Shown here: positions 4,953-24,730 of the stretch, one piece after another
How the letters are laid out: each line of letters starts with the position of its first letter
How positions within the stretch are numbered: position 1 is the first letter of the stretch
Assembly (NCBI GenBank): GCA_039804105.1
Contig: JBDRZU010000001.1
Span: 256,001 to 320,000, forward strand
DNA length: 64,000 nucleotides
Reading direction: 5' to 3'
Origin: a candidate division WOR-3 bacterium
GTDB taxonomy: Bacteria; Hydrothermota; 32-111
Notes under the pieces: generated by a model
The model's input: only the letters and a program-made list of their open reading frames with translations
Databases searched by the model: none
Told to the model about the DNA's origin: nothing
Translations under genes and position numbers: made by a program

Positions 4953-4969
4953 GCAAACTCCTTTTTTTC

Positions 4970-5147: not shown

Positions 5148-5208
5148 ATAAGTATTTTTGTTTAAACAATTTACAAAAAAATGTCAAAAAGTCAAGCACC
5201 GTCCCCAA
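5148..5208 (+). repeat. Dispersed repeat copy 1 (38-bp core 5171-5208 plus upstream dyad)
   Basis: Core TTACAAAAAAATGTCAAAAAGTCAAGCACCGTCCCCAA is identical to 7680-7717. Confidence 0.95.
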
Positions 5209-5220
5209 AAAAATTTCATA

Positions 5221-5248
5221 TTGAAAATTTTCATTGAAATTATAAAAT
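5221..5248 (+). promoter_or_regulatory. Promoter for the LVIVD gene
   Basis: TTGAAA-N16-TAAAAT before a GGAGG RBS. Confidence 0.55.
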
Positions 5249-5267
5249 AAAAAAAATGGGAGGTTAA

Positions 5268-7436
5268 ATGAAAATCAAACTTTTATTATCATTTTTTATT
5301 TTAATAATGCTTTCTATGTTTTTAAATGCAGACACACAAATATATGAAAATCAATTTATAAAAAAACAACAAGGAAAAGATATTTTTCCATATAAGTGGG
5401 CAACTGATAGTTTAAATGTTAATGGTATTGGATATTTACCTTCATTTCGTGAAACGAATAAGATAAAATTGATTGGTTCTCTTGCTTATGTTTGTTCTTA
5501 TACTCACTTAATAATTGTTGATGTATCTAATACTCATAAACCACAACTTTTAGGTTATTTTGAGTTTGACAATGTAGCAATAAGTTTAGATGTTTCTGGA
5601 GGATATGCATATATAGCAGATCTTATGGGTGGACTTAAAATTGTTGATGTAAGTACTCCTGAAAACCCAACTTTGGTTGCCACTTATGATTCTTTAAATC
5701 AGGTCAATAGTGTTTGTGTTGCTAATGATTATGCTTATGTCTTAGATTATTACAATGGACTTACAATTTTAACAGTTTCTGATCCTGCAATGCCGAAAAA
5801 AGTTGGAAGTTGTTCTTTAGTTAATAGTTGTTATGATATAACAGTAAATGATGGTATCGCATATATCGCAGCCGGTCAAAATGGATTAAGAGTAGTAGAT
5901 GTTTCTGATCCTTCAAAACCTGTTGAAATAGGTTTTTTGGATACACCAAATTATGCTTTCTCAGTAAAATACTATAACAAGAATGTTTACATAGCAGATG
6001 GTAATTCTGGTTTAAGAATAATTGATGTTTCAAATCCAAAAAATCCTTCAGAGATAGGATATTACGATACTTCAGATTACGCCAGAGATGTTTTCTTTTA
6101 TGATAATTTAGTTTTTATAGCAGACTACGCTGGACTTTCAATTATTGATGCAACAGATCCATCTTTTCCTATAGAAATGAGTTATCTACTTACTGATGGT
6201 TTTATGGTTGGGGTTTTTGTTCAAAACAATTATGCTTATGTATGTGATGGATTACTCGGTGTGAAATTTGTTAATGTTTCCGATCCCAAAAAACCTTTTG
6301 TGGAAGGGTATTTTGACACTCCGGATTACTCTTACATTATTTCTATAAATGGTAATTTTGCATTCACCAATGAATTTAATTTTTTGAAAGTTTTATCAAT
6401 ATCAAATCCCACCAACATAAGAGAAATAAATTATTTTGAAACTAATGATGAAATATATGGTATTTATGTTTCCAATGGATATGCTTTTTTAGCAAATTCA
6501 AGAGAAGGTTTACGAATTCTGGATATTTCAGATGTCACAAATATAACCGAAATTGGACACTATGATACTCCAGGATATGCTGGAGATGTTTTTGTTTCTG
6601 GAAATTACGCTTATGTTGCTGATGACACTTCGGGATTAAGGATAATCGATATAACAAGTTTAACAGACCCAATAGAGGTTGGGAGTTTTGATACTCCTGG
6701 CTATGCTTATAGAGTTTATGTTTCTGGTAACTATGCCTATGTTGCAGATATGACTCAGGGATTAAGAATTATTGATGTTTCAGATCCCAATTATCCAGTT
6801 GAAGTAGGATATTATAAACCTTCAGGTGATGTTCTTGGTGTATGGGTAAAAGATGACTATGCTTATGTTACTGCTTATGAATATGGTTTAAAAATAGTTG
6901 ATATAAGTGATCCTTCAAATCCTGTTGAAATTGGTTCTATTGACACACCGGGAGAAGCACAATATGTTAAAGTTTATGGAAACTTTGCTTTTGTTGCAGA
7001 TGGAGATTATGGATTGAGGGTGATTGATATATCAGATCCTACAAAACCTGTAGAAGTTGGTTATTATGTAACATCTGGACAAGTAATAAATTTTGATTTT
7101 TCAAATTATAATTTTTATCTTTTAGATTATTTTACAGGGATATACTCGGTCAATTTTATAAGTGCGGGGCTTGGTTTTGATAGAGACAAATCAAATAAAA
7201 ATATTGATGATACATCAAAATTAAAAGTAAATAAGAGTTTTATTTCATATATGTGTTCTACAGGTGAAAACAAATTTTCTGTTTATGATATAACAGGTAA
7301 ACTGATATACGATTCATCGAATCAGAGAATAGGGGAGCATATTTATTCAACAAAGGGTTTAAAATCAGGGGTATATTTTATAAAATTTAAAGATGGTCAT
7401 AGCGAGATAGATAGGAAGATGGTTGTTATCAGATGA
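5268..7436 (+). CDS. Secreted LVIVD-repeat beta-propeller protein with a T9SS/Por-type C-terminal domain
   Basis: Signal peptide; about 13 repeats of YAYVAD..GLRIIDVSDP..P.EVG..DTPG; tail VYDITGK...LKSGVYFIK...KMVVIR. Confidence 0.9.
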   Translation: MKIKLLLSFFILIMLSMFLNADTQIYENQFIKKQQGKDIFPYKWATDSLNVNGIGYLPSFRETNKIKLIGSLAYVCSYTHLIIVDVSNTHKPQLLGYFEFDNVAISLDVSGGYAYIADLMGGLKIVDVSTPENPTLVATYDSLNQVNSVCVANDYAYVLDYYNGLTILTVSDPAMPKKVGSCSLVNSCYDITVNDGIAYIAAGQNGLRVVDVSDPSKPVEIGFLDTPNYAFSVKYYNKNVYIADGNSGLRIIDVSNPKNPSEIGYYDTSDYARDVFFYDNLVFIADYAGLSIIDATDPSFPIEMSYLLTDGFMVGVFVQNNYAYVCDGLLGVKFVNVSDPKKPFVEGYFDTPDYSYIISINGNFAFTNEFNFLKVLSISNPTNIREINYFETNDEIYGIYVSNGYAFLANSREGLRILDISDVTNITEIGHYDTPGYAGDVFVSGNYAYVADDTSGLRIIDITSLTDPIEVGSFDTPGYAYRVYVSGNYAYVADMTQGLRIIDVSDPNYPVEVGYYKPSGDVLGVWVKDDYAYVTAYEYGLKIVDISDPSNPVEIGSIDTPGEAQYVKVYGNFAFVADGDYGLRVIDISDPTKPVEVGYYVTSGQVINFDFSNYNFYLLDYFTGIYSVNFISAGLGFDRDKSNKNIDDTSKLKVNKSFISYMCSTGENKFSVYDITGKLIYDSSNQRIGEHIYSTKGLKSGVYFIKFKDGHSEIDRKMVVIR

Positions 7437-7456
7437 TAAATGTACTTCAGGAATAG

Positions 7457-7494
7457 AAAACAAAAAGGGGTGTTTTTCACCCTTTTTTTGTTTT
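7457..7494 (+). terminator. Intrinsic terminator (probably bidirectional)
   Basis: AAAACAAAAAGGGGTG-TTTTT-CACCCTTTTTTTGTTTT. Confidence 0.8.
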
Positions 7495-7656
7495 ATAAAA
7501 AATATTGTTAAAAATAAAAGTTTTAGAAAATAAATGTTGGAGAATCAAATCAAAATATGACAATCAAAAATAAATGAAAAAAACATTATTTTTGAGTTAA
7601 ATTTTACCAAAAAATAAAAATAAAAAAATATAAAAATAGAAAGGACTAATATCTTA

Positions 7657-7717
7657 ATAACTATTATTTTTAAAATAACTTACAAAAAAATGTCAAAAAG
7701 TCAAGCACCGTCCCCAA
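7657..7717 (+). repeat. Dispersed repeat copy 2 (core 7680-7717)
   Basis: 38/38 identical to the copy 1 core. Confidence 0.95.
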
Positions 7718-7738
7718 TTTTGTTTTTTAATAAAAATC

Positions 7739-7766
7739 TTGAAAAGAAGGGATTTGTGGTTATAAT
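7739..7766 (+). promoter_or_regulatory. Promoter for the polysaccharide locus
   Basis: TTGAAA-N16-TATAAT. Confidence 0.6.
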
Positions 7767-7839
7767 AAATTTTTGAATGTTTTTTTATGATCTACATTAA
7801 ACATTGGAATGGTTTTAAATATAAATACAGGTTGAAGGA

Positions 7840-8433
7840 ATGGGGTATAGAAGTATAAAAAGGGGATTAGATATTTTCTTTTCAATAATACTTTTGATTG
7901 TTCTATTTCCTTTGTTCGTGATAATTTCTGTTTTGATATTGATAGATTCGAAAAAACCAATTTTTTTCTTACAAGATAGAATTGGGGAAAGTGGAAAAAT
8001 TTTTAAAATGATAAAATTTAGAACTATGATAGTTGGTGCAGAAAAGGGTGGAGTTTATGAGTTTAAAAATGATAACAGAATTACAAAGGTTGGAAAATTT
8101 TTAAGAAAAACATCACTTGATGAATTACCACAACTTGTAAATATTTTAAAAGGGGAAATGTCTTTTATTGGACCAAGACCTGTTTTGACATACCATCCTT
8201 TTAGGTACGAAGAGTATAATGAAATTCAAAAGAAAAGGTTTGAAGTAAAACCTGGAATAACAGGATTAGCTCAAATTAAAGGTAGAAAAGAAATCGGTTG
8301 GGACAAAAGGTTTAAATATGATATTTACTATGTTGAAAATCTTTCTTTTATTTTAGATTTTAAAATATTGATGCTAACTATTTTAAATGTTTTATTGATG
8401 AAAAATAATCTTAATGTAAACAAAACAGTATAA
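7840..8433 (+). CDS. Initiating sugar-phosphate transferase (Bac_transf family)
   Basis: Motifs KRGLDI, KFRTM, RITKVGKFLRKTSLDELPQ, GEMSFIGPRP and KPGITGLAQ. Confidence 0.93.
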   Translation: MGYRSIKRGLDIFFSIILLIVLFPLFVIISVLILIDSKKPIFFLQDRIGESGKIFKMIKFRTMIVGAEKGGVYEFKNDNRITKVGKFLRKTSLDELPQLVNILKGEMSFIGPRPVLTYHPFRYEEYNEIQKKRFEVKPGITGLAQIKGRKEIGWDKRFKYDIYYVENLSFILDFKILMLTILNVLLMKNNLNVNKTV

Positions 8434-8444
8434 AAAGGATTTTT

Positions 8445-9257
8445 ATGTTAAGATTTTTATATATCACAAATAACGAAGAAGTTGCAAAAATAGTAGAAAA
8501 AAATGGTGTTGAGTGGATATTTGTTGATCTTGAGATTTTAGGTAAGAAGGAGAGACAGAAAGGAAAAGATACAGTCATTTCCAACCATACTGTTGATGAT
8601 ATAAAAAAACTAAAAAATATTTTAACAAAGTCAAAAATTCTTGTCAGAACAAATCCTATAAATAGCAACAGTAAAGATGAAATTTACAGAATAATTGAAA
8701 ATGGAGCAGACATTATAATGCTTCCTTTTTTTAAGACAATAAAAGAGGTTGAAGAATTTTTAAAGATTGTTAATTCAAAAACTAAAACAATTTTGCTTTT
8801 GGAAACTCCAGAATCTGTTAAAATCCTTGAAGACCTTATCAAAATAAAAGAAATTAATTACTTTTATATAGGACTAAATGATCTATCACTTGGATATGGT
8901 TTTAAATTTATGTTTGAACCACTTGCTTATGGGATTGTTGATGAAATAGTTTTAAAAATAAAAAAAACACAAAAAGAATTTGGTTTTGGTGGTATAGCAT
9001 GTTTGGGAAAAGGAGTGTTACCTGCTGAATATGTTATTGCAGAACATTATCGATTGGGTTCAACGATGGTAATACTTTCAAGAAGTTTTTGTGATGTAAG
9101 TAAAATTAATGAAACAAAATTAATAGAAAAAATTTTTGAAGAAGAGATAAATAAAATTAGAGAATATGAGAAGTCATTAAGTGAAAAAAATAATGAATTT
9201 TTTTATGAAAATAAAAATAAAATAAAAAATATTATTATAGGAGGAAAAAATGAATGA
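8445..9257 (+). CDS. HpcH/HpaI aldolase / citrate lyase family protein
   Basis: Motifs IFVDLE, LVRTNP, IMLP, LLETP and YIGLNDLSL. Confidence 0.75.
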   Translation: MLRFLYITNNEEVAKIVEKNGVEWIFVDLEILGKKERQKGKDTVISNHTVDDIKKLKNILTKSKILVRTNPINSNSKDEIYRIIENGADIIMLPFFKTIKEVEEFLKIVNSKTKTILLLETPESVKILEDLIKIKEINYFYIGLNDLSLGYGFKFMFEPLAYGIVDEIVLKIKKTQKEFGFGGIACLGKGVLPAEYVIAEHYRLGSTMVILSRSFCDVSKINETKLIEKIFEEEINKIREYEKSLSEKNNEFFYENKNKIKNIIIGGKNE

Positions 9258-10839
9258 AAAATTAAAAAATATTCTTGATCAAAGAAAAGATCTGCAAAAA
9301 TTTTTATTCATTAAAGGTTTCCTGATCACTACTAAAGATTTATCAGAAAAAAAAGACTCTTTCCCATTTTATTCTAATTTTGAAGTAAAAAAAATAAAAA
9401 ATATTTTTTTCTGGATTTATAAAAATGTTCCATTTTATACTTTTGAGTCGAAAAACAAAACTTATTTTTTAATTGGACATGCTTATAATCCAATAACAAT
9501 GGAACATGATGAAAATAAGATCCTTCTTGATCTTTCGTTCCAAGATGAAAAGGGGACATATAATTTTATAAATAAAATTAATGAACTCACAGGTATATTT
9601 TTATTAGGTAAAATTGAAAATGAACAAATAGATTTTTTACTTGATGCATCTGGGATGCAATATGGATGTTATGGAAAATACGATAAAGATATATTCATTT
9701 CTTCCCATATTCAATTAGTAAACGATGTCTTAAATCTTGATTATATTGATTATGTAAATAGATTGATCAATTATAGATGGTATAAATACATGATGGGGAA
9801 TTATCTTCCCGGAGATTTGACACCTTTTAAAGAATTTAAAAGAATAATCCCTAACACAATTATAACATATAAAAATGATTCTTTTGTGATTAAAAGATTT
9901 TATCCTGAAAAACCTCTTGATTATGTTAAAAATGAAAAAGAGTATAATGATATAATAATTCAAGCATCAGAGATAATGAAAAATAACATGAAACTTATAT
10001 TAAAAAAGTGGAAGAGACCTGCAATTTCATTAACAGGAGGATTGGATAGTCAAACAACTTTTGCGGCTGCAAATGGATTATATGATAAATATGCTGTTTT
10101 CAGTTACATTTCAATGTATCGAGAAAAAGTTGATGCTGAGATTGCTCAAATTAAATCTAAAAAATTTAATGTTAAACATTCTTTATATCAAATCCCTGAA
10201 AGAAATGAAGAAATTGAAGATTTTGAAATCTATAAAATGATTTTAATACATAATGATGGAGAAATCGGAGGGAATAAAGATAATGACATTAGAAAAAAAA
10301 TATATCTTATGAAAAATTTTGCATATGATGTAGAAGTAAAAAACTGGATTGCTGAAACTTTTAGAGGTTATGCCTACAAATATTTCGGGAGAACAAAATT
10401 CCCCAAAGATTTAACACCGAGACACTATTCATCTTTGTATAAATTATTTTTTCTAAACAGAAAACTTTTAAAAGAGACAGATAATTATTTTAAAGAATAC
10501 ATTGAAAAAACAGAATTAAAAGAACATCTTTTCAACTATGATGAAAGCGATTTCTTTGTATGGGAAATGATGCATGGTGGTAAATGTGGACTTAATATTG
10601 GTGTTATGAAATTTTGTTTTGATATAACGATTCCTTATAATAACAGAAAATTTTTAGATATTTTATTAAGAGCAGATATAAAAGATAGAATCTCAGATAA
10701 AGTTCACCTCGATATGACAAAATATATGAATAAAGAATTGTATGATTTGAATTTAAGAGTAATAAATTTGAATGAAACAAGATTTAGAAAATTTCTTGCA
10801 AATATATATTTTACAATTAATAGTTCCTTACCTTTTTGA
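9250..10839 (+). CDS. Asparagine-synthetase-like protein (adenine nucleotide alpha-hydrolase domain, no N-terminal Cys)
   Basis: PP-loop ISLTGGLDS, ELTGIF..DASG Ntn-like segment and IPYNNR; lacks the MCG start. Confidence 0.6.
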   Translation: MNEKLKNILDQRKDLQKFLFIKGFLITTKDLSEKKDSFPFYSNFEVKKIKNIFFWIYKNVPFYTFESKNKTYFLIGHAYNPITMEHDENKILLDLSFQDEKGTYNFINKINELTGIFLLGKIENEQIDFLLDASGMQYGCYGKYDKDIFISSHIQLVNDVLNLDYIDYVNRLINYRWYKYMMGNYLPGDLTPFKEFKRIIPNTIITYKNDSFVIKRFYPEKPLDYVKNEKEYNDIIIQASEIMKNNMKLILKKWKRPAISLTGGLDSQTTFAAANGLYDKYAVFSYISMYREKVDAEIAQIKSKKFNVKHSLYQIPERNEEIEDFEIYKMILIHNDGEIGGNKDNDIRKKIYLMKNFAYDVEVKNWIAETFRGYAYKYFGRTKFPKDLTPRHYSSLYKLFFLNRKLLKETDNYFKEYIEKTELKEHLFNYDESDFFVWEMMHGGKCGLNIGVMKFCFDITIPYNNRKFLDILLRADIKDRISDKVHLDMTKYMNKELYDLNLRVINLNETRFRKFLANIYFTINSSLPF

Positions 10840-10841
10840 TA

Positions 10842-11753
10842 ATGAAACTTCTCATAACAGGTTCATTTAATATAGAAGATAAACAAAAAGTCAGTATAAA
10901 AAAAATAGGGTATGATTTATTTTTTTTTCAGGATGAGAAAAAAACTATTCCGAAATTTTTATTTGATGTTGATGGTATTATTTGTAATAACCTTTTTCTT
11001 TATAACAATATAAGAAACTTTAGAAATTTAAAATTCATTCAACTTACAAGTGCTGGATTGGACAGAATCCCAATGGATTATATCAAAAAGAAAAAAATAA
11101 AAATTTTTAATGCAAAAGGAGTTTATTCGATTCCGATTGCTGAAATGGTAGTTTTAAAAATTCTTGAAATTTATAAAAAATCAAGAAAGTTTGAAAAAGC
11201 ACAAACAAAACATAACTGGGAGAAGATAAGGGATCTCGAAGAATTAAGTGATAAAAAAATTGGTATTCTTGGTTTTGGAGATATTGGAAAAGAGATTGCA
11301 AAAAGATTAAAACCTTTTGGTGTTAGGATTTTTGTTTGTGATATAAAAAAGAAAAAAAATAATCTTATTGAAAAATTCTACTATTTTGATGAATTAAATA
11401 ATTTTTTAAAAAATATTGATGTTTTAATTTTGTCTCTACCTTTAACTGAAACAACAAAAGATCTAATCGATTATGAAAGGATGAATCTTTTAAAAGACGG
11501 TTGTGTTTTAATCAACATATCAAGAGGGGAAATAATTATAGAAAAAGATTTGATAAAATGTTTGAAAAAAAATAAATTTAAAGGTGTTTATCTTGATGTT
11601 TTTGAAAAAGAACCACTTGATAAGAATAATCCATTATGGGATTTTGAAAATGTTTTGATAACACCGCATAACAGTTTTGTTTCAGAAAAAATAAATGAAA
11701 GGTTATTTAACTTAATCTACCAAAATTTGAAATCATTAAAAGGGAAAAGATGA
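10842..11753 (+). CDS. D-2-hydroxyacid dehydrogenase family protein
   Basis: Motifs SAGLD, GILGFGDIG, LPLTETT, INISRG, LDVFEKEPL and ITPH; ATG at 10842. Confidence 0.9.
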   Translation: MKLLITGSFNIEDKQKVSIKKIGYDLFFFQDEKKTIPKFLFDVDGIICNNLFLYNNIRNFRNLKFIQLTSAGLDRIPMDYIKKKKIKIFNAKGVYSIPIAEMVVLKILEIYKKSRKFEKAQTKHNWEKIRDLEELSDKKIGILGFGDIGKEIAKRLKPFGVRIFVCDIKKKKNNLIEKFYYFDELNNFLKNIDVLILSLPLTETTKDLIDYERMNLLKDGCVLINISRGEIIIEKDLIKCLKKNKFKGVYLDVFEKEPLDKNNPLWDFENVLITPHNSFVSEKINERLFNLIYQNLKSLKGKR

Positions 11754-12853
11754 AAAAATTTTTATTGATATCACCGAAAAATCGAACCGTATATAATTTT
11801 AGAGGGGATTTGATTAAAGATCTGCAAAAAAAAGGTTTTGAGGTGTTCGTCACTATCCCAAACGAAGATAATCTTGAAAAAATAAAAGAGTTAGGGGTTG
11901 AATACAGATTCATTCCAATGACAAAACATGGTCTAAATATTATTGAAGATATAAAATATACCTTCGGTCTTATTAGCTATATAAAAGAAATAAAACCTGA
12001 CAAAATTCTTGCTTATACTATAAAACCAATAGTTTATGGTTCAATTGCTTCAAAATTTTCAAGGTCCAATGAATTCTATTCAATGTTCACGGGCTCAGGA
12101 TATGTATTCATATCAAAAAGTTTGAAAGCGAAAATTTTAAATTTGATCGTTAAAAACCTTTATAAAATAGCATTTAAAATCTCAAGGAAAGTTATTTTTT
12201 TTAATGAAGATGATTTAAATGAATTTTTAAAAATGAAAACAGTTTCAAAAGAAAAATGTGTCTTAGTTGAAGGTTCAGGAGTCAATTTAGAAAAATTTAA
12301 ACCTTTGCCTTATCCAGATAAAATAACTTTTTTTATGCTTTCAAGATTGTTAAAAAGTAAAGGAGTAATGCATTATCTTGAAGGATGTAAAAGGATAAAG
12401 GAAAAATATCCTGACGTTAGATGTATGCTTCTTGGAAAAATTGAAAAAATGCCTGATGCTATAGCCGAGAAAAATATAATGTTTTATGTTGATAATGGAT
12501 TTGTCGAGCTTTATGGTGAAACAGAGAATGTGATAGATTATTATAAAAAAACATCTGTATATGTTTTGACTTCTTTCAGAGAAGGAATACCGAGAACAGT
12601 TCTTGAAGCTATGGCATGTGCAAGACCAATAATTACAACAGATGTCCCGGGATGTAGACAGACGGTAGTTGATGGTTACAATGGTTTTTTAGTTCCTTTA
12701 AATAATATAGAAAAACTTGTTGAAAGGATGGAATATTTTATAAATAATAAAAATGAAATTGAAAAAATGGGAAAAAATTCTTATAATCTCTGTAGTGAAA
12801 AATTTGATGTGAAAAAGATAAACAGTTCAATGTTAAAAATAATGGGAATATAG
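11750..12853 (+). CDS. Glycosyltransferase family 4 (PglA-like)
   Basis: Motifs YTIKPIVYG, GSGVNL, RLLKSKG and REGIPRTVLEAMA. Confidence 0.9.
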   Translation: MKKFLLISPKNRTVYNFRGDLIKDLQKKGFEVFVTIPNEDNLEKIKELGVEYRFIPMTKHGLNIIEDIKYTFGLISYIKEIKPDKILAYTIKPIVYGSIASKFSRSNEFYSMFTGSGYVFISKSLKAKILNLIVKNLYKIAFKISRKVIFFNEDDLNEFLKMKTVSKEKCVLVEGSGVNLEKFKPLPYPDKITFFMLSRLLKSKGVMHYLEGCKRIKEKYPDVRCMLLGKIEKMPDAIAEKNIMFYVDNGFVELYGETENVIDYYKKTSVYVLTSFREGIPRTVLEAMACARPIITTDVPGCRQTVVDGYNGFLVPLNNIEKLVERMEYFINNKNEIEKMGKNSYNLCSEKFDVKKINSSMLKIMGI

Positions 12854-12854
12854 A

Positions 12855-14729: not shown

Positions 14730-15823
14730 ACAAGGGAATAAGAGTTCTACAGGTTTTTGGCAGAATGGATAGAGGTGGGGCTGAAACCTTGATTATGAAT
14801 GTTTATAGACACATTGATAGAAATAAAGTTCAGTTTGATTTTTTAGTTCATACACAGGATAAATGTGCATATGATGATGAGATTTTATCGATGGGAGGTA
14901 GAATTTTCAGAGTTCCAAGATATAAAGTTTATAATCATTTACAATACATTAACCAAATTAAAAATATTTTAAGTAAAAACCAATGGGAAATTATGCATTT
15001 TCATTTTTTTACAATATTTCCAGTCTATTTATCTATAGTGAATAAATATAAATATAAAATTGTAATTCATTCCCATAGTAACAATTTAGAAAAAAGTTTT
15101 AAAGGATTTTATCAAAAATTACTTTTAAATAAAATAAAAAAAATTGATGTTGAAAGATTTGCCTGTTCAGAGAAAGCAGGAGAATTTATTTTTAAAAAAA
15201 ATGATTTTATAACTTTTAACAATGGAATTGATACGAAAAAATTTAGTTTTAAGTCGGAAATTAGAGCACAATTTAGGGAAATATTAAGAATTCAAAATAA
15301 AATTGTATTGGGTCATGTGGGAAGTATTTATGAGCCTAAAAATCACTCATTTTTAATTGATGTTTTTTATGAATTTCAAAAAATAGAAAGTAATTCTGTT
15401 TTGATATTAGTTGGTGATGGACATTTAAAAGAAAAAATTAAAATCAAAATTAAAAAATTAAATATAGATGAAAAAGTAATATTCATGGGTGTGAGAGAAG
15501 ATGTTTATAATATTTTAAATTCTTTTGATATATTTGTATTCCCTTCATTATTTGAAGGTTTACCTGTTTCATTAATTGAAGCACAAAATAATGGATTAAA
15601 ATGTATAATTTCTGATAGAATAACAAACGAAGTAAAAATAACAGATCTTGTTGATTTTTTATCTCTTGAAAAAGGGGCAAAATATTGGGCTGAACATATT
15701 GCAAAATCCTTATATTATGAAAGAAAAGATAGAAGTGAAGAAATAATAAAAGCAGGGTATGATATAAAAGAGAATGCAAAATGGCTTGAAAAATTTTATT
15801 TAGAACTGATAAATAAAAAATGA
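14726..15823 (+). CDS. Glycosyltransferase family 4 (EpsF-like)
   Basis: Motifs MDRGGAET, GHVG..KNH and FPSLFEGLPVSLIEAQ. Confidence 0.9.
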   Translation: MNKGIRVLQVFGRMDRGGAETLIMNVYRHIDRNKVQFDFLVHTQDKCAYDDEILSMGGRIFRVPRYKVYNHLQYINQIKNILSKNQWEIMHFHFFTIFPVYLSIVNKYKYKIVIHSHSNNLEKSFKGFYQKLLLNKIKKIDVERFACSEKAGEFIFKKNDFITFNNGIDTKKFSFKSEIRAQFREILRIQNKIVLGHVGSIYEPKNHSFLIDVFYEFQKIESNSVLILVGDGHLKEKIKIKIKKLNIDEKVIFMGVREDVYNILNSFDIFVFPSLFEGLPVSLIEAQNNGLKCIISDRITNEVKITDLVDFLSLEKGAKYWAEHIAKSLYYERKDRSEEIIKAGYDIKENAKWLEKFYLELINKK

Positions 15824-17094
15824 AAAAAATTTGGATTTTATTTTTACTACAATTAGTAATATTAGCAATTCTTAAACCATTTATAACTGATTTAGAATTT
15901 TCGTCTTTGTATTTTGTATTTATTCATTCTATCTTAACTATTTTAATTTTATTACAATATAAAACAAAATTAAAATATTTGTTTATCTTAGGTTTTCTCT
16001 TAAGAGTTTTTACAATGTTCTGGGATATTTATTTCCATAATATTTTTAATCTACCAAATTCAGGTGTTGATAGTGAAATGTATTATTATTATGCTGTTCA
16101 AATATCTAATTATGAATCTTTTTCAAATTTGTTCACAAGGGGTGGTTTATATTCATTTATAAATGGAGTAATGTTTATTTTTATTGGAACACAAAGAATA
16201 ATTGGACAATACTTGAATGTAATTTTTGGCTTAAATGTAATCATATTGGTTTTCAAAATTCTTAATCTCTTAAATATTGATGATAGCAAGAAACTAATTT
16301 CAATAGCAATACTTGCTGTTTTCCCAAACTCATTAATAATGTCAGGGATTTTTTTAAGAGAAAGTATCATCACTTTTTTAGCAACAATTTCTTTATATTA
16401 TTTTACATTATGGTTTTTAACAAATAAAAATAAATACATGTTTCATTCAATTCTTTTTGTTGGCTTAGCAAGTGCGTTCCATTCAGGAATGATTGCTTTA
16501 TTTTTAGGTTATGCTTTTTCTTTTCTTTTTTATTCTTCAAAATACAATAACTTTATTTTTTCAAAAAGAACAATTTTTACTTTTTTATTATTACTTTTTG
16601 TATTTATATTTTCATATTTTAGATACCAAGAAGTTTTTTTTGCTAAATTCACAAAACTTGATCAAATTGAGGATTATTTTACAACTGTAAACAGTAGATT
16701 AGGCGGTTCTGCTTATTTAAAATTTTTAAAAATTGATTCTCCTTTGTTACTTGTTTTATTTGGCCCAATTAAATTTATTTATTTTTATATCGCTCCACTT
16801 CCTATTGATTGGAGAAATATTTTTGATGTTATAACTTTTTTATTTGATTCGTTGTTGTATTTGTATATAATGATAAAAATTTCTGATTTTGTTTTAAATG
16901 AGAAAAACAAATTCAGTACTGTTTATAAAAATTACGTTTTTTCTTTAATTATGATTATTGTCTTTGTTTCAATTATTTTTGGTTCAGGGGTTGGTAATAC
17001 AGGAACTGCATTAAGGCATAGACAAAAGTTTATATCAAACTTTATTGTTTTGTTAGCTTTAATAAATCTTTCAAAAAAGGAGTTAAAAAAATGA
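15820..17094 (+). CDS. Polytopic membrane protein, probable Wzy-type polysaccharide polymerase
   Basis: About 10 TM segments, LRES and GTALRHRQK motifs, located within a glycan locus. Confidence 0.6.
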   Translation: MKKIWILFLLQLVILAILKPFITDLEFSSLYFVFIHSILTILILLQYKTKLKYLFILGFLLRVFTMFWDIYFHNIFNLPNSGVDSEMYYYYAVQISNYESFSNLFTRGGLYSFINGVMFIFIGTQRIIGQYLNVIFGLNVIILVFKILNLLNIDDSKKLISIAILAVFPNSLIMSGIFLRESIITFLATISLYYFTLWFLTNKNKYMFHSILFVGLASAFHSGMIALFLGYAFSFLFYSSKYNNFIFSKRTIFTFLLLLFVFIFSYFRYQEVFFAKFTKLDQIEDYFTTVNSRLGGSAYLKFLKIDSPLLLVLFGPIKFIYFYIAPLPIDWRNIFDVITFLFDSLLYLYIMIKISDFVLNEKNKFSTVYKNYVFSLIMIIVFVSIIFGSGVGNTGTALRHRQKFISNFIVLLALINLSKKELKK

Positions 17095-18335
17095 ATATTT
17101 TGTATGTTACTGGATTGTCTATTCCTTTAAAAAATATTATTGAAGGCAAAATGGAAAAAGAAATTACTGGGCTTCCTGGATTTTATTATCCATGGAAAAA
17201 ACTTGTTGATAGAGGTCACAATGTTGATTTTGTTTTTATTTCCAATTTTAAAGGAAAATATAATATTAAGGTTCAATGGTTTAGTGAAAAAAATATTCTT
17301 GCTAATATTTATGCTCCTTACACAGAAGTAAATTTTTTCAGATTTATAAGACAGTTTATTAGATTTATTCAACTTTTATACTATACTTATAAAGCAACAA
17401 AAACAAAAAAATATGATTTTATATATTGTAAAGCTTATGAAGGTTTTGCAGGTCAAATTATTGGTAAAATATATAAAATACCAACAGGTATTAGATTATT
17501 TGGAGATTTTACCTTTTGTTATACTGACATAAAAAAATATGGGATATTTTGGGGTTCTATTAAACACATTTTTGAATTTTTTTCTTTTAAATTGGGAGCA
17601 AATTTTTTACTTGCCACTGATGATGGTTCAAATTGTGATAAACTTTTTTATTTGTGGAATAATTATAAAACAAAATTTTATTTTTGGAAAACAGGAATTG
17701 ATATCTCATTACCTGAAATAAATAAACCATCAACAATAAGAATTCCTAATAAAAATTACATTTATTTTGCGGCAAGATATCAAAATTGGAAAAGACATGA
17801 TAGAGTCATAAATGTATTAAAAAAACTAATAGATAAAAATTATAAATTAGATTTAGTTTTCACAGGTAATATAACATCTCAAGAATATTATGAAAGCTTA
17901 AAAAAATTATCCAAATACTTGAATGTTGACCAGTATGTTTTTTTTGAAAAAGAAATAGCCCAAAATGATGTAAAGTTATTAGCAAAAAATGCTGTTGCAA
18001 ATATATTGATGGCAGATAATTCAAATTTAGGAAATGTGTTTTTTGAAATTTTTTCTATAGGTTCTATAATAATCTCTTTAAAAAATCGAGCATTAGAAGA
18101 ATATATTGTTAACGGGTATAATGGATTTCTTGTTGAAAATGAAGATGAAGTAGTAGAAATAATTATTAAAATTTTAAAAGAAGAAATTGATTCAAATAAG
18201 ATTAAAGAAAATGCTAAAAAAACTGCTCTTGAGAGATTTTTATCTATAGATGAAAGATTTGATAAAGAGGTAGAACTTATAGAAAGAACAGCAAGAAGAG
18301 AAAAAAATATAAAGATTAAGTTAAGTAAAAAATGA
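17091..18335 (+). CDS. Glycosyltransferase (GT-B fold, family 4-like)
   Basis: Motifs ARYQNWKR, SNLGNVFFE and IVNGYNGFLV. Confidence 0.75.
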   Translation: MNILYVTGLSIPLKNIIEGKMEKEITGLPGFYYPWKKLVDRGHNVDFVFISNFKGKYNIKVQWFSEKNILANIYAPYTEVNFFRFIRQFIRFIQLLYYTYKATKTKKYDFIYCKAYEGFAGQIIGKIYKIPTGIRLFGDFTFCYTDIKKYGIFWGSIKHIFEFFSFKLGANFLLATDDGSNCDKLFYLWNNYKTKFYFWKTGIDISLPEINKPSTIRIPNKNYIYFAARYQNWKRHDRVINVLKKLIDKNYKLDLVFTGNITSQEYYESLKKLSKYLNVDQYVFFEKEIAQNDVKLLAKNAVANILMADNSNLGNVFFEIFSIGSIIISLKNRALEEYIVNGYNGFLVENEDEVVEIIIKILKEEIDSNKIKENAKKTALERFLSIDERFDKEVELIERTARREKNIKIKLSKK

Positions 18336-19822
18336 ATATAAAAATTGCTACTAATTCATTAATATTAACAATTACAAGATTCATAAATCTTGTTGTGATG
18401 ATTATTTATTTAATGATATTAGCAAGATTCCTAACTCTAAAAGAGTATGGAACTTTTTCTCAAATTTTACTTATATCCAATTTTGCAACGATTGTTCTTG
18501 GTTTTGGACTTGCTTCAAGTGTTAATTATTTTATGGCAAAAGAGGATACTGATGATGGAAAAAATAAGTTTTTATCAATTTTTTATACTTTCACTATTTT
18601 TATTTCAGTAATAATTGGAATTACTCTCATTTTAACTGATTCATTTTTCTCAAAATATTTTAATAATGATGATTTAATTTCATATTCGATCGCTTTTTTT
18701 GTTTTGCCTTTTGCAATTATTAGTAAATCAAGTTTTGACAACGTTATGATAGTTTCAAACAAAACAAGATATTTGTTATTTTTCAAAATATTCCATTCTG
18801 CTCTTCTTCTTATTACTGTTACTTTGAATTTTATTTTAAAAAGTAATTTTAAAATATTTTTAATATTTTATCTTGCAATTGAACTAATTGTATCACTTAT
18901 TTTTCTTTTATACATTTATTTATTTGTTAACAAATTCAAATTTAAAATTGAATATAGAATTCTGAAAAGTATATTAAAGTTTTCAATTCCATTAGGACTT
19001 GCAACAACAATTTCAACAATAAATATAGAACTTGATAAATTTATTATAGGTAGATTTTTTGATACTGAAAAACTCGCGATTTATACTAATGGGTCAAAGG
19101 AAATGCCTGTCACAATAATATCAGGATCGTTGGTTTCTATCCTTATGCCGATTATCGTTAAGGAGATTAAAAGAAAAAATTATAATAAAGTAATGGAACT
19201 ATGGAATAAAACAAATGAATTATCTTTAATTGTTATTTCTTACTTTATAATTATTTTTTTAGTATTTGCTCCAGAAATTGTAACAATACTTTATTCAAAA
19301 AAATACATTGAAGCAGTTCCTATCTTTAGAATATATTCTCTTGTTTTATTTTTAAAATTTACTTATTTTGGTATGGTGTTAAATGCTTCAGGTAAAACAA
19401 AATTTATTTTTTATTCATCCTTAATATCTCTATTTTTAAATATGTTTCTTAATGTTTTATTCATAAAATTATTTGGTTTTATTGGTCCAGCAATAGCAAC
19501 TCTATTATCTTTATCTGTTGTAGTTTTTTTTCAACTCTTTTATACTTCAAAATTGACTGGTTTTAGTTTTTTAAAAATTTTTAAATGGAATACAATCTTT
19601 AAAACTATAGTAGTAACTTTTCTTTTTTCGGTCATTTTAGAAGTTTTAAAAATTTTTATTTTAAAATTTAGAATAAATCCTTATTTATCTTTTATTGTTT
19701 TATTATTTCTATTTTCAATTTTCTACTTTATTTTTGCATTTAAAAAAAAAATTCTTAATTTATGGAAATATTTAAATAACTACAAACAGGAGGATGAAAT
19801 TAAAAATGAAAATTTTAGTTAA
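18332..19822 (+). CDS. wzx: Wzx oligosaccharide flippase
   Basis: [26 protein letters not shown] and [11 protein letters not shown] motifs; 12 or more TM segments. Confidence 0.88.
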
Positions 19823-20414
19823 AAACATTTATTTGTTTTTAGTTTTTCTTTATGCAAAATTAATATCTTTATTTTTATATGACAAAAAATATCTTAAAAG
19901 TAAATGGTTTAAAGGACAAAAATATTTTTTTGATGCACCAGGATGGGTATGGATAATTAGAGATTTTAATGGGCGTCTGTTTTTAAATGTAAACACTACT
20001 GTACCATTTCCCATATCTCCTTTTTGTAAAGTAATTGATTTTAACAACATAACTTTTCATCCTGATTCTTTAAACATTTTTCAATCTGTAGGATCATATT
20101 TCCAGGCATTTAAAGACGGAAAAATTATAATCGGAAAGAATACTTGGATTGCTCCAAATGTTGGAATAATCACAACAAATCATAATCCCTTTAACCCGTC
20201 AAAACATCAAAAAGGGGAAACGGTTATTATAGAAGATAATTGTTGGATTGGAATGAATTCAGTTATATTGCCTGGAGTTAAATTGGGTAAGAATACAGTA
20301 GTTGGTGCTGGATCAGTGGTAACAAAAAGTTTTCCTGAAGGTTATTGTGTTATTGCTGGTAACCCAGCAAAAAAAATTAAGGATTTACCTAAAGAAGGTT
20401 ATCAAGAACCTTAA
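19806..20414 (+). CDS. Hexapeptide-repeat (LbH) O-acyltransferase
   Basis: [15 protein letters not shown] and [31 protein letters not shown]; start at 19794 or 19806. Confidence 0.9.
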
Positions 20415-20448
20415 AAATTTTTCTTGCATTCATCTTCATTCATCCTAC

Positions 20449-20476
20449 TTGAATCTTGTTTCAAAATGATTACCAT
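20449..20476 (+). promoter_or_regulatory. Candidate promoter for oligopeptidase B
   Basis: TTGAAT-N16-TACCAT. Confidence 0.4.
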
Positions 20477-20500
20477 ATATTGAATATGAAAGGAGTGGTG

Positions 20501-22606
20501 ATGAAAAAATTAAAAAGTGTAATTGCTTCAGTTGTTCTTTTGATTTTCGTTTTCAGTTTTTCAAAGCAACTTAAACCTTTAACTCCACCTGATGCTATAA
20601 AGGAACCACATTATTTGAATATACATGATACAACTCTTGTTGATGATTATTTTTATTTCAGGAATAGTGATGATAAAAGGGTTCTTGATTATATTGATCA
20701 AGAAAACGAATATACCGAAAAAATAATGTCAAAAACAAAAAATCTCCAGAAACAACTTTATAATGAAATTTTGAAAAAGGTAGATAAGGATGATGTTTCT
20801 GTTCCAGAAAGAAGAGATTCTTTCCTTTACTATTACAAGGATTTAAAAGGTAAGGACTATACAATATTTTGTAGAAAAAAAGATAAGGAAGGTGCAAAAG
20901 AGGAAATTATTATCGATGTTAACGAATATGCAAAAAATTATCCTTTCTTTGATTTGAATTTTGGAGAGATTTCAACAGATCACAGGATGCTGTCCTATTC
21001 TTTTGATACTTTGGGAAATGAGAATTACACTTTACGAATACTCGATTTGAAAACAAAACAAGATATTGCTCTACCAGTTATCGATAATATTACATCTTTT
21101 GCATTCAACAGATACAACGATGGATTTTTCTATACGATTCAAAATGATATTTCAAGATCTTACGCTTTAAAATATTACGATATGAGAACAGGGAAAGATA
21201 CCTTGCTTTATGAAGAACAAGATGAAAGATTTTCTGTCTATATCAACAAAACAAGGAATAAAGATTATATATTGGTGTCTGTTTCAAGTTCAACAACTTC
21301 TGAATATTACTATATTGAAAGTGGTGATAGAGAGTTAGTTTTGAAACCTCTTGTAAAAAGAGAAAATGGAGTTGAGTATTCGTTTGACCAATCAGGAAAA
21401 TATTTTTACTTTTTAACAAATAAGGATTGTGTTAATTTCGACTTAAAAAGATTCAGAATCGATTCAACAATTGAAAATTCTTATACGATTATAAAAGGTT
21501 CAGATACTCTCATGATAGAGGGTTTTGATGCATTTGAAAAATTTTTGTCTGTGTACGAAAGAGTTAATGGAAGGAAAAAATTAAAATTTTATTATCTTGA
21601 TAGTGGTGAATCAAAATATTTTAATTTTGGTGAAGAAAATTGCACTTTTTATCCGTTTTCAAATTCATCTTTTAGAAGGGATTCTTTGAGAGTGTCTTAT
21701 ATGTCGTTAAAAACACCTGCAACTGTTATTGACATTGATGTGTGGAATTTAAAAAGTGTAGTTAAAAAGGTTGATGAGATAAAAGGTTATAAAAAAGAAA
21801 ATTATGTAACTGAATATATCTATGCTCAAGCACCAGATGGAGAGATGATTCCAATATCACTTGTTTACAATAAAAAATTTAAGCCGGAAAATCGTCCTTT
21901 ACTTTTAACAGGTTATGGTGCTTACGGTGCTCCATCAAATCCCTACTTTTCAACATCAAGGTTATCTTTACTTGATAGGGGAGTGATATACGGTATCGCA
22001 CACATTAGGGGAGGTGGAGATAAAGGAAGAAAATGGTATCTTGATGGAAAAATGTTTAAAAAGATGAACACTTTTACTGATTTTATTTCTTGTGCAGAAT
22101 ATCTTATTCAAAAAGGTTATACTTCACAGGATAAACTTGCAATTGAAGGTGGAAGTGCTGGAGGACTTTTGATAGGATCTGTTTTAAACATGAAACCTCA
22201 TCTTTTTAAAGGAGCAATCCTCGGTGTCCCATTCGTTGACCTTATCAATACAATGCTTGACACAACTTTACCACTTACAGTAGGGGAGTTTGAAGAATGG
22301 GGTAATCCCCAGATAAAGGAGCAGTTCGATTATATGATAAAATACAGCCCTTATGATAATATTCAACCTAAAAAATATCCAATAATACTTGTGAAATCAT
22401 CTTTCTATGATACAAGGGTGATGTATTGGGAACCACTGAAATGGGTCGCAAAAATGAGAGACAATAAACTTGATAACAACCTTTTACTCTTAAAAATGAG
22501 AATGAATGCTGGACATGGTGGAAATTCAGGTAAATATAACTGGTATGAAGAGATAGCATTTGATAATGCATTTTTACTTTATTATGTTTGGGGTATCACT
22601 AAATAA
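20501..22606 (+). CDS. ptrB: Oligopeptidase B (S9A) with an N-terminal signal peptide
   Basis: Catalytic GGSAGG, DTRV and AGHG; GYGAYG and EEWGNP; ATG at 20501 after AGGAG. Confidence 0.92.
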   Translation: MKKLKSVIASVVLLIFVFSFSKQLKPLTPPDAIKEPHYLNIHDTTLVDDYFYFRNSDDKRVLDYIDQENEYTEKIMSKTKNLQKQLYNEILKKVDKDDVSVPERRDSFLYYYKDLKGKDYTIFCRKKDKEGAKEEIIIDVNEYAKNYPFFDLNFGEISTDHRMLSYSFDTLGNENYTLRILDLKTKQDIALPVIDNITSFAFNRYNDGFFYTIQNDISRSYALKYYDMRTGKDTLLYEEQDERFSVYINKTRNKDYILVSVSSSTTSEYYYIESGDRELVLKPLVKRENGVEYSFDQSGKYFYFLTNKDCVNFDLKRFRIDSTIENSYTIIKGSDTLMIEGFDAFEKFLSVYERVNGRKKLKFYYLDSGESKYFNFGEENCTFYPFSNSSFRRDSLRVSYMSLKTPATVIDIDVWNLKSVVKKVDEIKGYKKENYVTEYIYAQAPDGEMIPISLVYNKKFKPENRPLLLTGYGAYGAPSNPYFSTSRLSLLDRGVIYGIAHIRGGGDKGRKWYLDGKMFKKMNTFTDFISCAEYLIQKGYTSQDKLAIEGGSAGGLLIGSVLNMKPHLFKGAILGVPFVDLINTMLDTTLPLTVGEFEEWGNPQIKEQFDYMIKYSPYDNIQPKKYPIILVKSSFYDTRVMYWEPLKWVAKMRDNKLDNNLLLLKMRMNAGHGGNSGKYNWYEEIAFDNAFLLYYVWGITK

Positions 22607-22607
22607 A

Positions 22608-23366
22608 CTATAAAGTTATCGTTTCTGAAGGTGAGTTGTAAGGAGAGATAACAAATTTTGTTTTCTCAGATTGAAATTGTGCGATTATTTCGTTGTAGAC
22701 AACTTCAGGGGAGTTGGTTCTTTTACTTAAATGATGTAAAAATATGTATTTTATATTTTGATTATAAAGTTTTTTAATAACTTTTAGTGTATCGTCGTTT
22801 GACAAGTGTCCATTTTCAGAAAGTATTCTTTGTTTTAAAGAGTCAGAATATTTTGATTTATGAAGTCCTTCTTTAGAATGGTTTGACTCAATCACAAGAA
22901 TCTTGATATCTTTTAAGAGAGGAATCAGATTATCATCAAATTGTCCCATATCTGAAAGGAATCCAATTTTTGAGTCATGGTAATTTATTATAAATCCAGT
23001 ATTTAACATATCGTGTGAAATTTCGAATGGGAAAAATTCAAAGTCGAACACAGAAAAACTTTTTCCAAACTCAAAAGGGATTTTAAAAAGGTGATTTTGA
23101 TAATGATTTTTATAATTGTTATTAAAATATAGATTTATTGACGGATTTTTTTTAAGAATAGATTCAAGACCTATGAAATGATCTCTATGAAAATGGGTTA
23201 TAACGATTGCTTTTAAATTTTCTATTGAAAGTGATTTGGATTCCAAAAGTTTTCTGGTTTTTCTATATGAAAGTCCAGCATCAATAAGTATAAGTTCTTC
23301 AGGATTTGAATATAGTACAAAAGAATTCCCATCAGAACAACTCGATAAAGAGAAAAAATTAACCAT
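22608..23366 (-). CDS. Metallo-beta-lactamase-fold hydrolase, YycJ/WalJ-like
   Basis: SSCSDGNS, LIDAG, THFHRDH, ISHD, IESNH, LKQRILSENGHLSN and HLSKRTN. Confidence 0.85.
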   Translation of the reverse strand: MVNFFSLSSCSDGNSFVLYSNPEELILIDAGLSYRKTRKLLESKSLSIENLKAIVITHFHRDHFIGLESILKKNPSINLYFNNNYKNHYQNHLFKIPFEFGKSFSVFDFEFFPFEISHDMLNTGFIINYHDSKIGFLSDMGQFDDNLIPLLKDIKILVIESNHSKEGLHKSKYSDSLKQRILSENGHLSNDDTLKVIKKLYNQNIKYIFLHHLSKRTNSPEVVYNEIIAQFQSEKTKFVISPYNSPSETITL

Positions 23367-23465
23367 TTTTCCACATTTTGTTTAAATAATTTTTTATTAT
23401 TTTTCCGATAGTTATACTACTTTTCCACATATTTTACCCATCATTATCCACATTATTTATCCACA
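23367..23465 (+). promoter_or_regulatory. Cluster of four co-oriented DnaA boxes
   Basis: TTTTCCACA at 23367 and 23421; TTATCCACA at 23444 and 23457. Confidence 0.75.
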
Positions 23466-23480
23466 ACATGAGAACAAAAA

Positions 23481-23542
23481 TTGGGGACGGTGCTTGACTT
23501 TTTGACATTTTTTTTGTAAATACATTAAATTAAATAAGTTAT
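23481..23542 (-). repeat. Dispersed repeat copy 3 (core 23481-23519)
   Basis: Reverse complement of the copy 1/2 core with one extra A in the A-run. Confidence 0.95.
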
Positions 23543-23557
23543 AGACCATTCAATTTT

Positions 23558-24631
23558 TTATTTTTGGTAAATTTTTATCGATTTTTTCCGATTTTTAATA
23601 TTTTGCTCGATAACTTTCTTTGAATTACTGAAAATACTTTTATAAAAGTCGTAAGGATAAAACATTGTAGAATCATCAACAGGATCAGAAATTTCAAATG
23701 CCCCAATACCTTCATAATAATTTTCATTTATAAAACCTTTTACTTTACATGGACCGGTGAAAATTACTCCAGGGATAAAACATTCATCGTAGAGTGGCTC
23801 ATAAAAAAGATAGATAGAATCATCTTTACTTCTTATAAGAAAACCGTATTCGTAGATTTTACGCGATAAGAGTGATTTTCTGTATGTTATAGTGTCAAGA
23901 AAAGTGTTTTTATATATCATCGATTTTTTGTCTTTAAGATTATGATATTGTAAAAAGTTGAATTCTTGATTTTTAAAATGACCTGAAACAAGAAATTTAT
24001 CATCACCAAGAAAAATACCACTCCAGATCCATCTATTCTTAATATCAAGTTTCATATTTCCCCATTGATGATCAAACCATCCATACTTGTTTGATATTTT
24101 TGTTAGATCAATATTGACTTTATCTGTTTTGATAAAACCAGTTAATTTTTTTGAAATCAAAGAATAATATCCTGCTGTGTCTTTTATATGTCCCATAATA
24201 ATATAGCCGCTATCTCCATTTATGAGCATTTTATTGTCATAATCAAAATTTATCGAACATTGTAAATCGTTAAGATAAAAATTTATATCAAAACTAAGAT
24301 TTTCAAAATCATTATTGTCTTTGAAATTTTTCATACCAGAATAGATTGGGACATTAGTTTCATAATAATAGAAAGTATCCTTTAAAATATCTTTGATATA
24401 TATGTTTGAGAAATATGAATTAGCATCAAAATATTGAAAAACGATTACAAAATAATCATATTTTTTTTGCTGATTTTCAGTTAAAATATAGGTGTAATAC
24501 CAATTGATTTGACCTTTATGAATCTGGACATCTTTTGTTAAATCAAGAGTATATTTTTGATAATGATGCGCACAATTTATTAAAAGAAACATAAAAAAAA
24601 TGGAAAAGATTTTTTCTAATCTCAGTTTCAT
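23558..24631 (-). CDS. Lipoprotein with an AttH/CrtC-like (lipocalin-like) domain
   Basis: ATG 24631 gives signal peptide ..FLLINC; motifs WYY, GWFDHQWG and WIWSGI. Confidence 0.65.
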   Translation of the reverse strand: MKLRLEKIFSIFFMFLLINCAHHYQKYTLDLTKDVQIHKGQINWYYTYILTENQQKKYDYFVIVFQYFDANSYFSNIYIKDILKDTFYYYETNVPIYSGMKNFKDNNDFENLSFDINFYLNDLQCSINFDYDNKMLINGDSGYIIMGHIKDTAGYYSLISKKLTGFIKTDKVNIDLTKISNKYGWFDHQWGNMKLDIKNRWIWSGIFLGDDKFLVSGHFKNQEFNFLQYHNLKDKKSMIYKNTFLDTITYRKSLLSRKIYEYGFLIRSKDDSIYLFYEPLYDECFIPGVIFTGPCKVKGFINENYYEGIGAFEISDPVDDSTMFYPYDFYKSIFSNSKKVIEQNIKNRKKSIKIYQK

Positions 24632-24638
24632 AGATTTT

Positions 24639-24666
24639 ATATTATCAAAACAATTATTTATGTCAA
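24639..24666 (-). promoter_or_regulatory. Promoter, probably producing a leaderless transcript
   Basis: TTGACA-N16-TAATAT with TGn extension; ATG lies 7 nt downstream and there is no SD. Confidence 0.55.
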
Positions 24667-24697
24667 TAACTATCAATAATGTTATAGCTTATCTTGA

Positions 24698-24730
24698 TTG
24701 GGGACGGTGCTTGACTTTTTGACATTTTTT
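24698..24730 (-). repeat. Dispersed repeat copy 4 (33 bp, no upstream dyad)
   Basis: Plus-strand sequence TTGGGGACGGTGCTTGACTTTTTGACATTTTTT. Confidence 0.92.

Follow-up and report, generated by a model that had tools for sequence, protein, structure and literature searches.

The subject of this analysis is a family of short repeats in a 64,000-nucleotide stretch of DNA (the window; assembly GCA_039804105.1, contig JBDRZU010000001.1, positions 256,001 to 320,000) of a candidate division WOR-3 bacterium. The four copies of the repeat in the window are solo copies of the terminal inverted repeat (TIR) of the single TIRYT gene of this genome, a Y1/HUH transposase gene fixed at one locus, and a pair of these copies marks a real empty/filled site, at which a unit with the gene of an LVIVD-repeat protein behaves as a cassette. 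The repeats are hot spots of gene change, not its sole route. Judging from the comparison of the source genome (G000; 1.81 Mb, 85% complete) with four congeners (G001-G004), it is likely, with a probability of roughly 0.55, that the TIRYT protein acts in trans and drives gain, loss and reordering of genes at the repeats by nicking and rejoining DNA.

The window copies have the form A(6-7)TGTCAAAAAGTCAAGCACCGTCCCCAA, are 33-34 nt long and are located at 5175-5208 (copy 1, plus strand), 7684-7717 (copy 2, plus), 23481-23514 (copy 3, minus) and 24698-24730 (copy 4, minus), i.e. within a few bases of the positions given in the earlier note, which had been made from the letters of the window and described the copies as nearly identical. 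Indeed, the copy pairs 1/3, 2/4, and 1/4 are 100% complementary over 33-34 nt, and the pair 2/3 has the core in common. The whole G000 genome contains 41 copies, 38 of them with the exact 23-mer, which is far above chance; in G001-G003 the counts are 26-35 per genome, the reversed-pattern control giving no match in any of 30 genomes. Among 200 genomes of the phylum, 26 contain the pattern. The three bases that follow GTCCC are C or T (40/41), a purine (41/41), and mostly A (35/41). None of the four window copies folds into a hairpin better than shuffled sequences (z from -0.8 to +1.0), the left end of the transposase gene being the only copy that folds somewhat better (z -2.0). The copies show no strand bias with respect to the local GC skew (13/11 and 9/8), and genome-wide the 41 copies are tied neither to one gene set nor to gene starts. 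It was considered whether the ~10 nt beyond CCCC always move together with the repeat; this was dropped, as identical units differ in their first bases between G000 and G001.

As the earlier note stated, no transposase or integrase lies in the window, where neither Y1 nor tyrosine recombinase matches were found. The repeat family is therefore an orphan as far as the window is concerned but not in the genome, since it frames the only Y1_Tnp match of G000 (C1:1070308-1071225, minus strand, 305 aa), located ~750 kb beyond the window; the suspected link to Y1/HUH transposases proved correct. The gene is enclosed by two inverted 34-bp copies, one of them 78 bp before the start and the other overlapping the stop codon, and the corresponding inverted pairs in G002 and G003 are 32-34 bp long. 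The protein scores 46.9 bits against PF01797 (cut-off 23), and its HUH motif (H59, H61) and Y118 are invariant in all 20 aligned homologues. In the structure model (pLDDT 87), residues 1-180 have TnpA_REP (4ER8) as the best match (Z 17.0, rmsd (root-mean-square deviation) 2.4, 155 residues aligned), and residues 209-300 match four DnaA domain IV entries with middling scores (Z 6.9-7.7, rmsd 2.6-5.0, 76-87 aligned). Bac_DnaA_C is matched in one of 20 homologues and HTH_23 in two; the G000 protein itself gives no Pfam helix-turn-helix match, and a sequence search with the C-terminal alignment against solved structures returned no matches at E<=1. The model predicts an N-terminal TnpA_REP-like HUH nuclease joined to a C-terminal helix-turn-helix similar to DnaA domain IV. 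The dN/dS ratio of the gene is ~0.07-0.22 in all five comparisons, and the gene is present in one copy, at the same locus and between the same two neighbours, in G000-G003. In G004 these neighbours are 48 bp apart, no Y1 homologue was detected at E<=1e-10, and a single variant repeat lies on a 3.2-kb contig.

Several further observations concern the ends and the copy number of this element. The ends are translated within the host neighbours (G000:C1:1070308-1071300; L001, L021, L022, L023): the left repeat supplies the end of the upstream 126-aa gene (GDGA-stop), and the right one a possible start (MSKSQAPSP) for the glycosyltransferase-like gene downstream, the gene labels being read by eye. 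The same fusion is seen in G002 and G003, and the G004 neighbours have native ends. The element may be locked in place by the translation of its ends into both neighbours. In contrast to the single fixed copy of this genus, some relatives (G006, G007, G010, and G028) contain 10-14 divergent TIRYT-like matches per genome, several of which have distinct end repeats of their own.

The window copies 1 and 2 belong to the filled allele of the first locus. Between the flavin-reductase-like gene (4434-4952, minus; at this site in G000-G003 and missing there in G004) and the sugar transferase gene that opens the glycan locus (7840-8433, plus; at this site in all four congeners), copy 1 is followed by a 2,509-bp unit (5209-7717, plus), which ends with copy 2. 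As described in the earlier note, the two copies enclose a promoter-like site (5221-5248, plus; a 10/12 match to the sigma-70 consensus), the LVIVD gene (5268-7436, plus), and a hairpin resembling an intrinsic terminator (7462-7488, plus); such promoter-like matches are no commoner than in shuffled sequences (21 vs 19.6), and the site at 5221-5248 is a consensus match only. The cargo is a 722-aa protein with a C-terminal tail of the Por/T9SS type, and its gene is found at this site in none of the congeners. The search for empty sites, which the earlier note had proposed, was carried out on these relatives. G001, the closest one (89% identical to G000 over 1.15 Mb aligned), can be aligned with the window as far as copy 1 and then from copy 2 onwards; at this site it has a single repeat and lacks the LVIVD gene. 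Over the first 120 bases that follow its repeat the sequence has diverged, so that this pair of alleles is not base-exact. G002 has here two repeats around the gene of a 410-aa protein, plus other extra genes, and G003 has one repeat after two other genes, the repeat at the position of copy 2 being in both of the species' own variant; G004 has neither a repeat nor an extra gene. The cargo of the site is thus not invariant within the genus, whereas the glycan locus, called accessory in the earlier note, is a fixed flank and not cargo, because its start is retained in all four congeners, including the transposase-free one. Four DNA runs (all contigs) over window positions 4300-8700 contain joints at the repeats, e.g. 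from 5206 to 7674, with just 21-36 letters on the short side, and these were counted neither for nor against excised circles or an empty site in the same sample. Twelve tiny G001 contigs with one central repeat were considered as excised circles and rejected: none has terminal overlaps and most are collinear with G000, so that they are assembly fragments.

Similar pairs of alleles were found at other sites. The base-exact one is C1:709649, where G000 and G001 have one repeat, and G002 has two, surrounding a 5.5-kb unit with a pair of secreted-protein genes; the G001 flanks are identical to those outside the G002 pair at 70/70 upstream and 60/60 downstream positions. At C1:599284 a 10-kb methylase/helicase (restriction-modification-like) island lies between direct repeats in G002, and G003 has one repeat; at C1:1067688 there is one repeat in G000 and two in G001, on separate short contigs. 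Variation is also seen in an array beside a TauE gene, which consists of six full direct copies in G000 and nine in G001, the shared units being alignable up to the next repeat. The order of units is LVIVD, ATPase, DUF2130, and AbiJ-containing unit in G000, and LVIVD remnant, AbiJ-containing unit, ATPase, another unit, and DUF2130 remnant in G001. Of two units only a 3' remnant is left, beginning 11 nt beyond the repeat that precedes it; a point ~11 nt past a repeat is joined there to the interior of a gene, with no second repeat at the joint. Opposite this array, and facing it, lies another. The same anchors enclose, in G002 and in G003, gene blocks that differ from each other and are contained in a single facing pair; in G004 there is nothing between them. 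Neither a repeat nor extra genes were found in G004 at any of six orthologous sites examined. The units range from 86 bp to 10 kb, may include several genes and lie in either orientation, and the repeat itself is flipped at two orthologous spacers, which does not agree with the strict one-gene-one-site grammar of integron cassettes presumed earlier.

Some of the DNA inside or next to the repeats deserves separate mention. CRISPR-like arrays are situated directly inside or against the repeats (L148:4011-14619; L004:11107-16278; G000:C2:421997), one repeat joining such an array 15 nt before a CRISPR repeat, and in G002 an apparent cas operon, with labels read by eye from open reading frames, has a similar position. 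A repeat-bearing block (L145 and L146 compared with G000:C1:493879-502071) has 97-100% protein identity between G000, G002, and G003, against ~80-90% in its neighbours, and the identity of these sequences points to recent transfer between species.

The association of the repeats with gene change was evaluated for 215 of the 340 G000 spacers, which could be scored against G001; the 125 unscored ones correspond to ~350 kb of G001 contig 2 and to the match of G000 1.05-1.27 Mb, over which the G001 assembly is sparse. Gene content has changed at 9 of 16 repeat-bearing junctions and at 20 of 199 repeat-free ones (p 3e-5); with the array excluded, 4 of 11 repeat junctions are changed (p 0.025). The repeats also follow the transposase gene of each species. 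At its four middle positions the repeat reads AAAA in 38 of 39 copies of G000 and 32 of 34 of G001, and it reads CACT or TACT in 18 of 25 copies of G002 and 21 of 24 of G003 on the stretches examined. In each species this variant is that of its own TIRYT ends, which also holds at orthologous sites, for instance at window copies 2 and 3. Those AAAA copies of G002 and G003 that were inspected sit in segments unusually close to G000/G001, which suggests their import. G000 and G001 have an identical 23-mer at all 16 unchanged sites, and the bases 6-50 nt away from it are 78-83% identical between them, compared with 90% in alignable repeat-free spacers, a background that favours conserved spacers.

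Traces of the reaction itself might be seen in four short tandem duplications (18, 22, 24, and 27 bp), each of which starts again within the repeat at one shared position, in front of CAAG, and runs to 4-13 nt beyond CCCC. Together with the 11-nt offsets of the truncated units they suggest that one nick has a fixed place within the repeat and that others fall at variable places just outside it. We suppose the following mechanism. The helix-turn-helix would hold the tandem GTCA boxes of the repeat, and the HUH nuclease would nick one strand both within the repeat, at a site that is likely GT^CAAG, and a few bases past its CCCC end. The HUH domain could then exchange single strands between repeat copies. 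An exchange between two direct copies would free the cargo with one repeat and leave one repeat behind, and the reverse exchange would add a unit directly 3' of the resident repeat. Off-site joining could plant new copies, truncate units, and overwrite old copies with the current variant. Cleavage 5' and 3' of the site and strand transfer in vitro are on record for TnpA_REP enzymes (PMC8266576). As to the trans-acting enzyme that, according to the earlier note, adds gene-plus-site units, its action in trans, the variable cargo, and the reordering of units agree with the data, and the catalytic role of TIRYT is probable.

A number of observations weigh against this mechanism, and the second locus of the window provides one of them. 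Here copies 4 and 3 do enclose a promoter-like site (24666-24639) and a lipoprotein gene (23558-24676, minus), an accessory CrtC/lipocalin-domain open reading frame of 372 aa from TTG with a likely ATG start at 24631, just as had been noticed before. On the side of copy 3 they are flanked by a conserved metallo-beta-lactamase-fold gene (22608-23366, minus), and on the side of copy 4 by a decayed acyltransferase-3 gene (24774-25800, plus; its 5' end was aligned and its right end is approximate), which is intact in G003 (341 aa, with PF01757 matched on the G003 protein). G001 is similar to G000; in G002 and G003 both genes, that of the lipoprotein and that of the acyltransferase, are accompanied by copy 3 alone, and G004 lacks both genes and both repeats. 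Copy 3 is therefore at its spot in G000-G003, and copy 4 exists only in G000 and G001. Since G002 and G003 have the lipoprotein gene without copy 4, this copy was gained or lost without moving the gene, and the lipoprotein unit, contrary to what was proposed, is not a two-repeat cassette. Further, 20 of the 29 changed junctions have no repeat and 7 of the 16 repeat-bearing ones are unchanged; the junctions are not independent, as one event gives two and five of the nine lie in one array; and among whole-alignment blocks a repeat is found at the edge of just 4 of 15 large differences. At two orthologous spacers the repeat has opposite orientations. Of the four duplications, one may be due to 4 nt of microhomology and another is degenerate. 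Homologous recombination between 32-bp direct repeats would equally give a precise empty/filled pair. Finally, the detailed comparison covers five genomes of one genus, with G004 as the single negative case.

Such recombination is the core of the explanation that survives best after ours. TIRYT might only scatter and refresh the repeats, as is thought for RAYTs acting on REPs, and homologous recombination of the host, or slippage, between direct copies would delete, duplicate, or integrate the DNA between them. We find this possible, if rather doubtful. The seamless crossover inside the repeat in the G001/G002 pair requires no special enzyme, host recombination accounts for clean empty/filled pairs equally well, and the segments of G002 and G003 that are near-identical to G000 point to interspecies exchange of larger regions. 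On the other hand, 32 bp is probably short for RecA, and the absence of the LVIVD unit from the first locus of four congeners makes a gain simpler than a loss, and a gain needs an incoming repeat-bearing piece. Host recombination also does not easily produce truncated units joined to a gene interior with no second repeat, or duplications that have one internal break in common. For IS801 fragments, nevertheless, recombination by the host was the conclusion drawn (PMC3189936).

It is much less probable that the repeats are passive markers in insertion-tolerant spacers, where accessory genes gather for unrelated reasons. The predominance of repeat-free junctions among the changed ones, the independent arrival suggested by the flipped repeats, and the appearance or disappearance of copy 4 between unchanged flanking genes would fit such a view; the boundaries of units, which coincide with the repeat to the base, the lack of both repeats and extra genes at all six sites of the enzyme-free G004, and the cores identical at 16 of 16 unchanged orthologous sites, against an average of 90% for alignable spacers, argue against it. 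As to attC-like integron sites or operators of a transcription factor, to which the gene-plus-site spacing in the arrays, the TTGAC boxes on the reverse strand, and the predicted DNA-binding C-terminal domain could be ascribed, they are very improbable, given that the best TIGR02249 score in this 85%-complete genome is 77.6 against a cut-off of 265 bits, that no copy lies within 35 kb of its two tyrosine recombinases, and that the window copies neither fold nor, like the family as a whole, keep to a gene set or to gene starts. A tyrosine recombinase was rejected as the catalyst as well, neither of the two matches being near a copy or IntI-like.

Returning to the TIRYT protein as the probable driver of gene exchange, the class of elements it belongs to has already been named. 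TIRtrons and TIRYTs were named by Di Nocera, De Gregorio, and Rocco (2013), who reported families of scattered TIR copies (PMC3733652), and they correspond to TnpA_Y1 subclass 2.1 (Quentin et al., 2018, bioRxiv 10.1101/279083) and to RAYT group 1 (Bertels et al., 2017, 10.1101/119735); in the strain sample of Quentin et al. (10.1101/279083), 14.9% have proteins of subclass 2.1. By the features tested (the Y1 core, inverted ends, C-terminal domain, and dispersed copies) the system described here is a TIRtron with its TIR family. Like the published TIRtrons, it has a Y1/HUH gene within terminal inverted repeats that begin with GGGG, one of which overlaps the gene's 3' end, a DnaA-like helix-turn-helix at the C-terminus, and dispersed single, paired, and clustered repeats. 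Its end GGGGACGG departs from the consensus GGGGWSAS, reported for the majority of known TIRs but not all, at one of eight positions (a 7/8 match); close homologues share GGGACGG, and distant ones share GGGGTCAG. A survey of 80 loci of distant homologues, 8 of which were left out for short flanks, revealed inverted repeats of at least 16 bp around 54 of the remaining 72, with extra copies in the examined flanks of 19 of these 54 (one in the reversed control).

The portions of the TIRtron descriptions available to us cover the spread of the repeats, not gene gain, loss, or reordering at them, and give no assay. In the literature searched, i.e. titles and abstract openings, with subscription papers and bioRxiv supplements, which may bear on this point, lying outside it, we found neither a description of gene exchange or cassettes at TIRYT repeats nor a tested activity of TIRYT or subclass 2.1. 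The nearest published case is that of a group 1 TnpA_REP, of the same enzyme subclass, located beside prochlorosin genes and proposed to diversify its neighbours; no inverted repeats were found there, and the authors note that strong evidence speaks neither for causation nor against it (Laurenceau et al., bioRxiv 10.1101/2020.03.09.984088).

Comparison with other systems helps to define what is specific here. With REPtrons (TnpA_REP, i.e. RAYT groups 2 and 3; REP, BIME, and REPIN; PMC8266576) the system shares the core fold (4ER8) and the reliance on one domesticated enzyme, encoded at a fixed site, whose action in trans is directed at repeats dispersed over the genome. Unlike REPs, the repeat has no hairpin and no GTAG foot, the enzyme has the additional C-terminal domain, and the copies bound kilobase gene units; since 4/4 window copies fold no better than shuffles, identity with REPtrons was rejected. 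Integrons consist of the integrase IntI, the attI site, and attC cassettes. The resemblance to them lies in the outcome: direct-repeat arrays, empty and filled sites, reordered units, and a cargo of defence and surface-protein genes. The differences are the lack of IntI, sites that are sequence-identical, non-palindromic, and unstructured, numerous scattered entry points, none of them linked with the gene of the enzyme, units that comprise several genes in either orientation, and ragged ends; with neither IntI nor an attC hairpin, this identity was rejected as well. One-ended transposition of the IS91 family, exemplified by IS801, also involves an HUH enzyme and pieces with one fixed and one variable end, and among the IS801 target tetranucleotides, GAAC and CAAG, the latter is the one before which the putative break in our repeat falls (PMC3189936). 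A self-mobile IS91/ISCR element, with ori/ter ends and no terminal inverted repeats, was rejected on account of the inverted repeats and of the one copy at one locus in G000-G003.

A few features that accompany the repeats are of separate interest. Many copies are preceded, at a distance of ~35 nt, by a loose TAA-N(18-20)-TTA motif, which may resemble a symmetric IHF-type site (e.g. window 7657-7682). It is present in 14 of 39 distinct upstream flanks, whereas the frequency in random spacer windows is 5.4% and mirrored downstream flanks have it in 7 of 41 cases; the left end of the enzyme contains it as well. GTAG-footed, REP-like palindromes, which form a second family, abut some copies (G000 C1:~470700 and ~1289200; L004:5494-5579 and 6992-7177), and near-identical joints of palindrome and repeat recur at distant loci, though G000 shows just one Y1 gene. 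Back-to-back pairs of the repeat (~285 bp in G000 and G001, ~125 bp in G022) resemble non-autonomous miniature elements (G000 C1:1386958-1389599 and C2:421997; L018:5772-6059; L153); at one place there are apparently two such pairs around two genes in G000 and one pair in G001, as reconstructed across contig ends.

What appears new against the literature searched is the gain, loss, and reordering of genes at the repeats of an already named element. A wider claim may be advanced only tentatively, and we give it somewhat less than an even chance: the domesticated TIRYT could provide an integrase-free, integron-like system of genome-wide gene capture and shuffling, in which an HUH nuclease guided by a DnaA-like helix-turn-helix would excise units of 1-10 kb with defence and surface-protein genes and insert them at ~40 unstructured 32-bp entry points, would build two facing arrays, and would keep all sites matched to the enzyme's own ends. 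If this is true, much of Y1 subclass 2.1 could serve for gene capture, in view of the inverted repeats around the majority of the distant homologues. The function of TIRYT is directly testable, because there are one 32-bp site, a predicted nick, exact before and after alleles, and a natural enzyme-free relative. Should the enzyme catalyse the swaps, cassettes would here be exchanged by HUH chemistry, which might find use in the transfer of kilobase DNA from one short site to another identical one; should it not, a domesticated transposase would still seed recombination hot spots for the defence and surface genes of its host.

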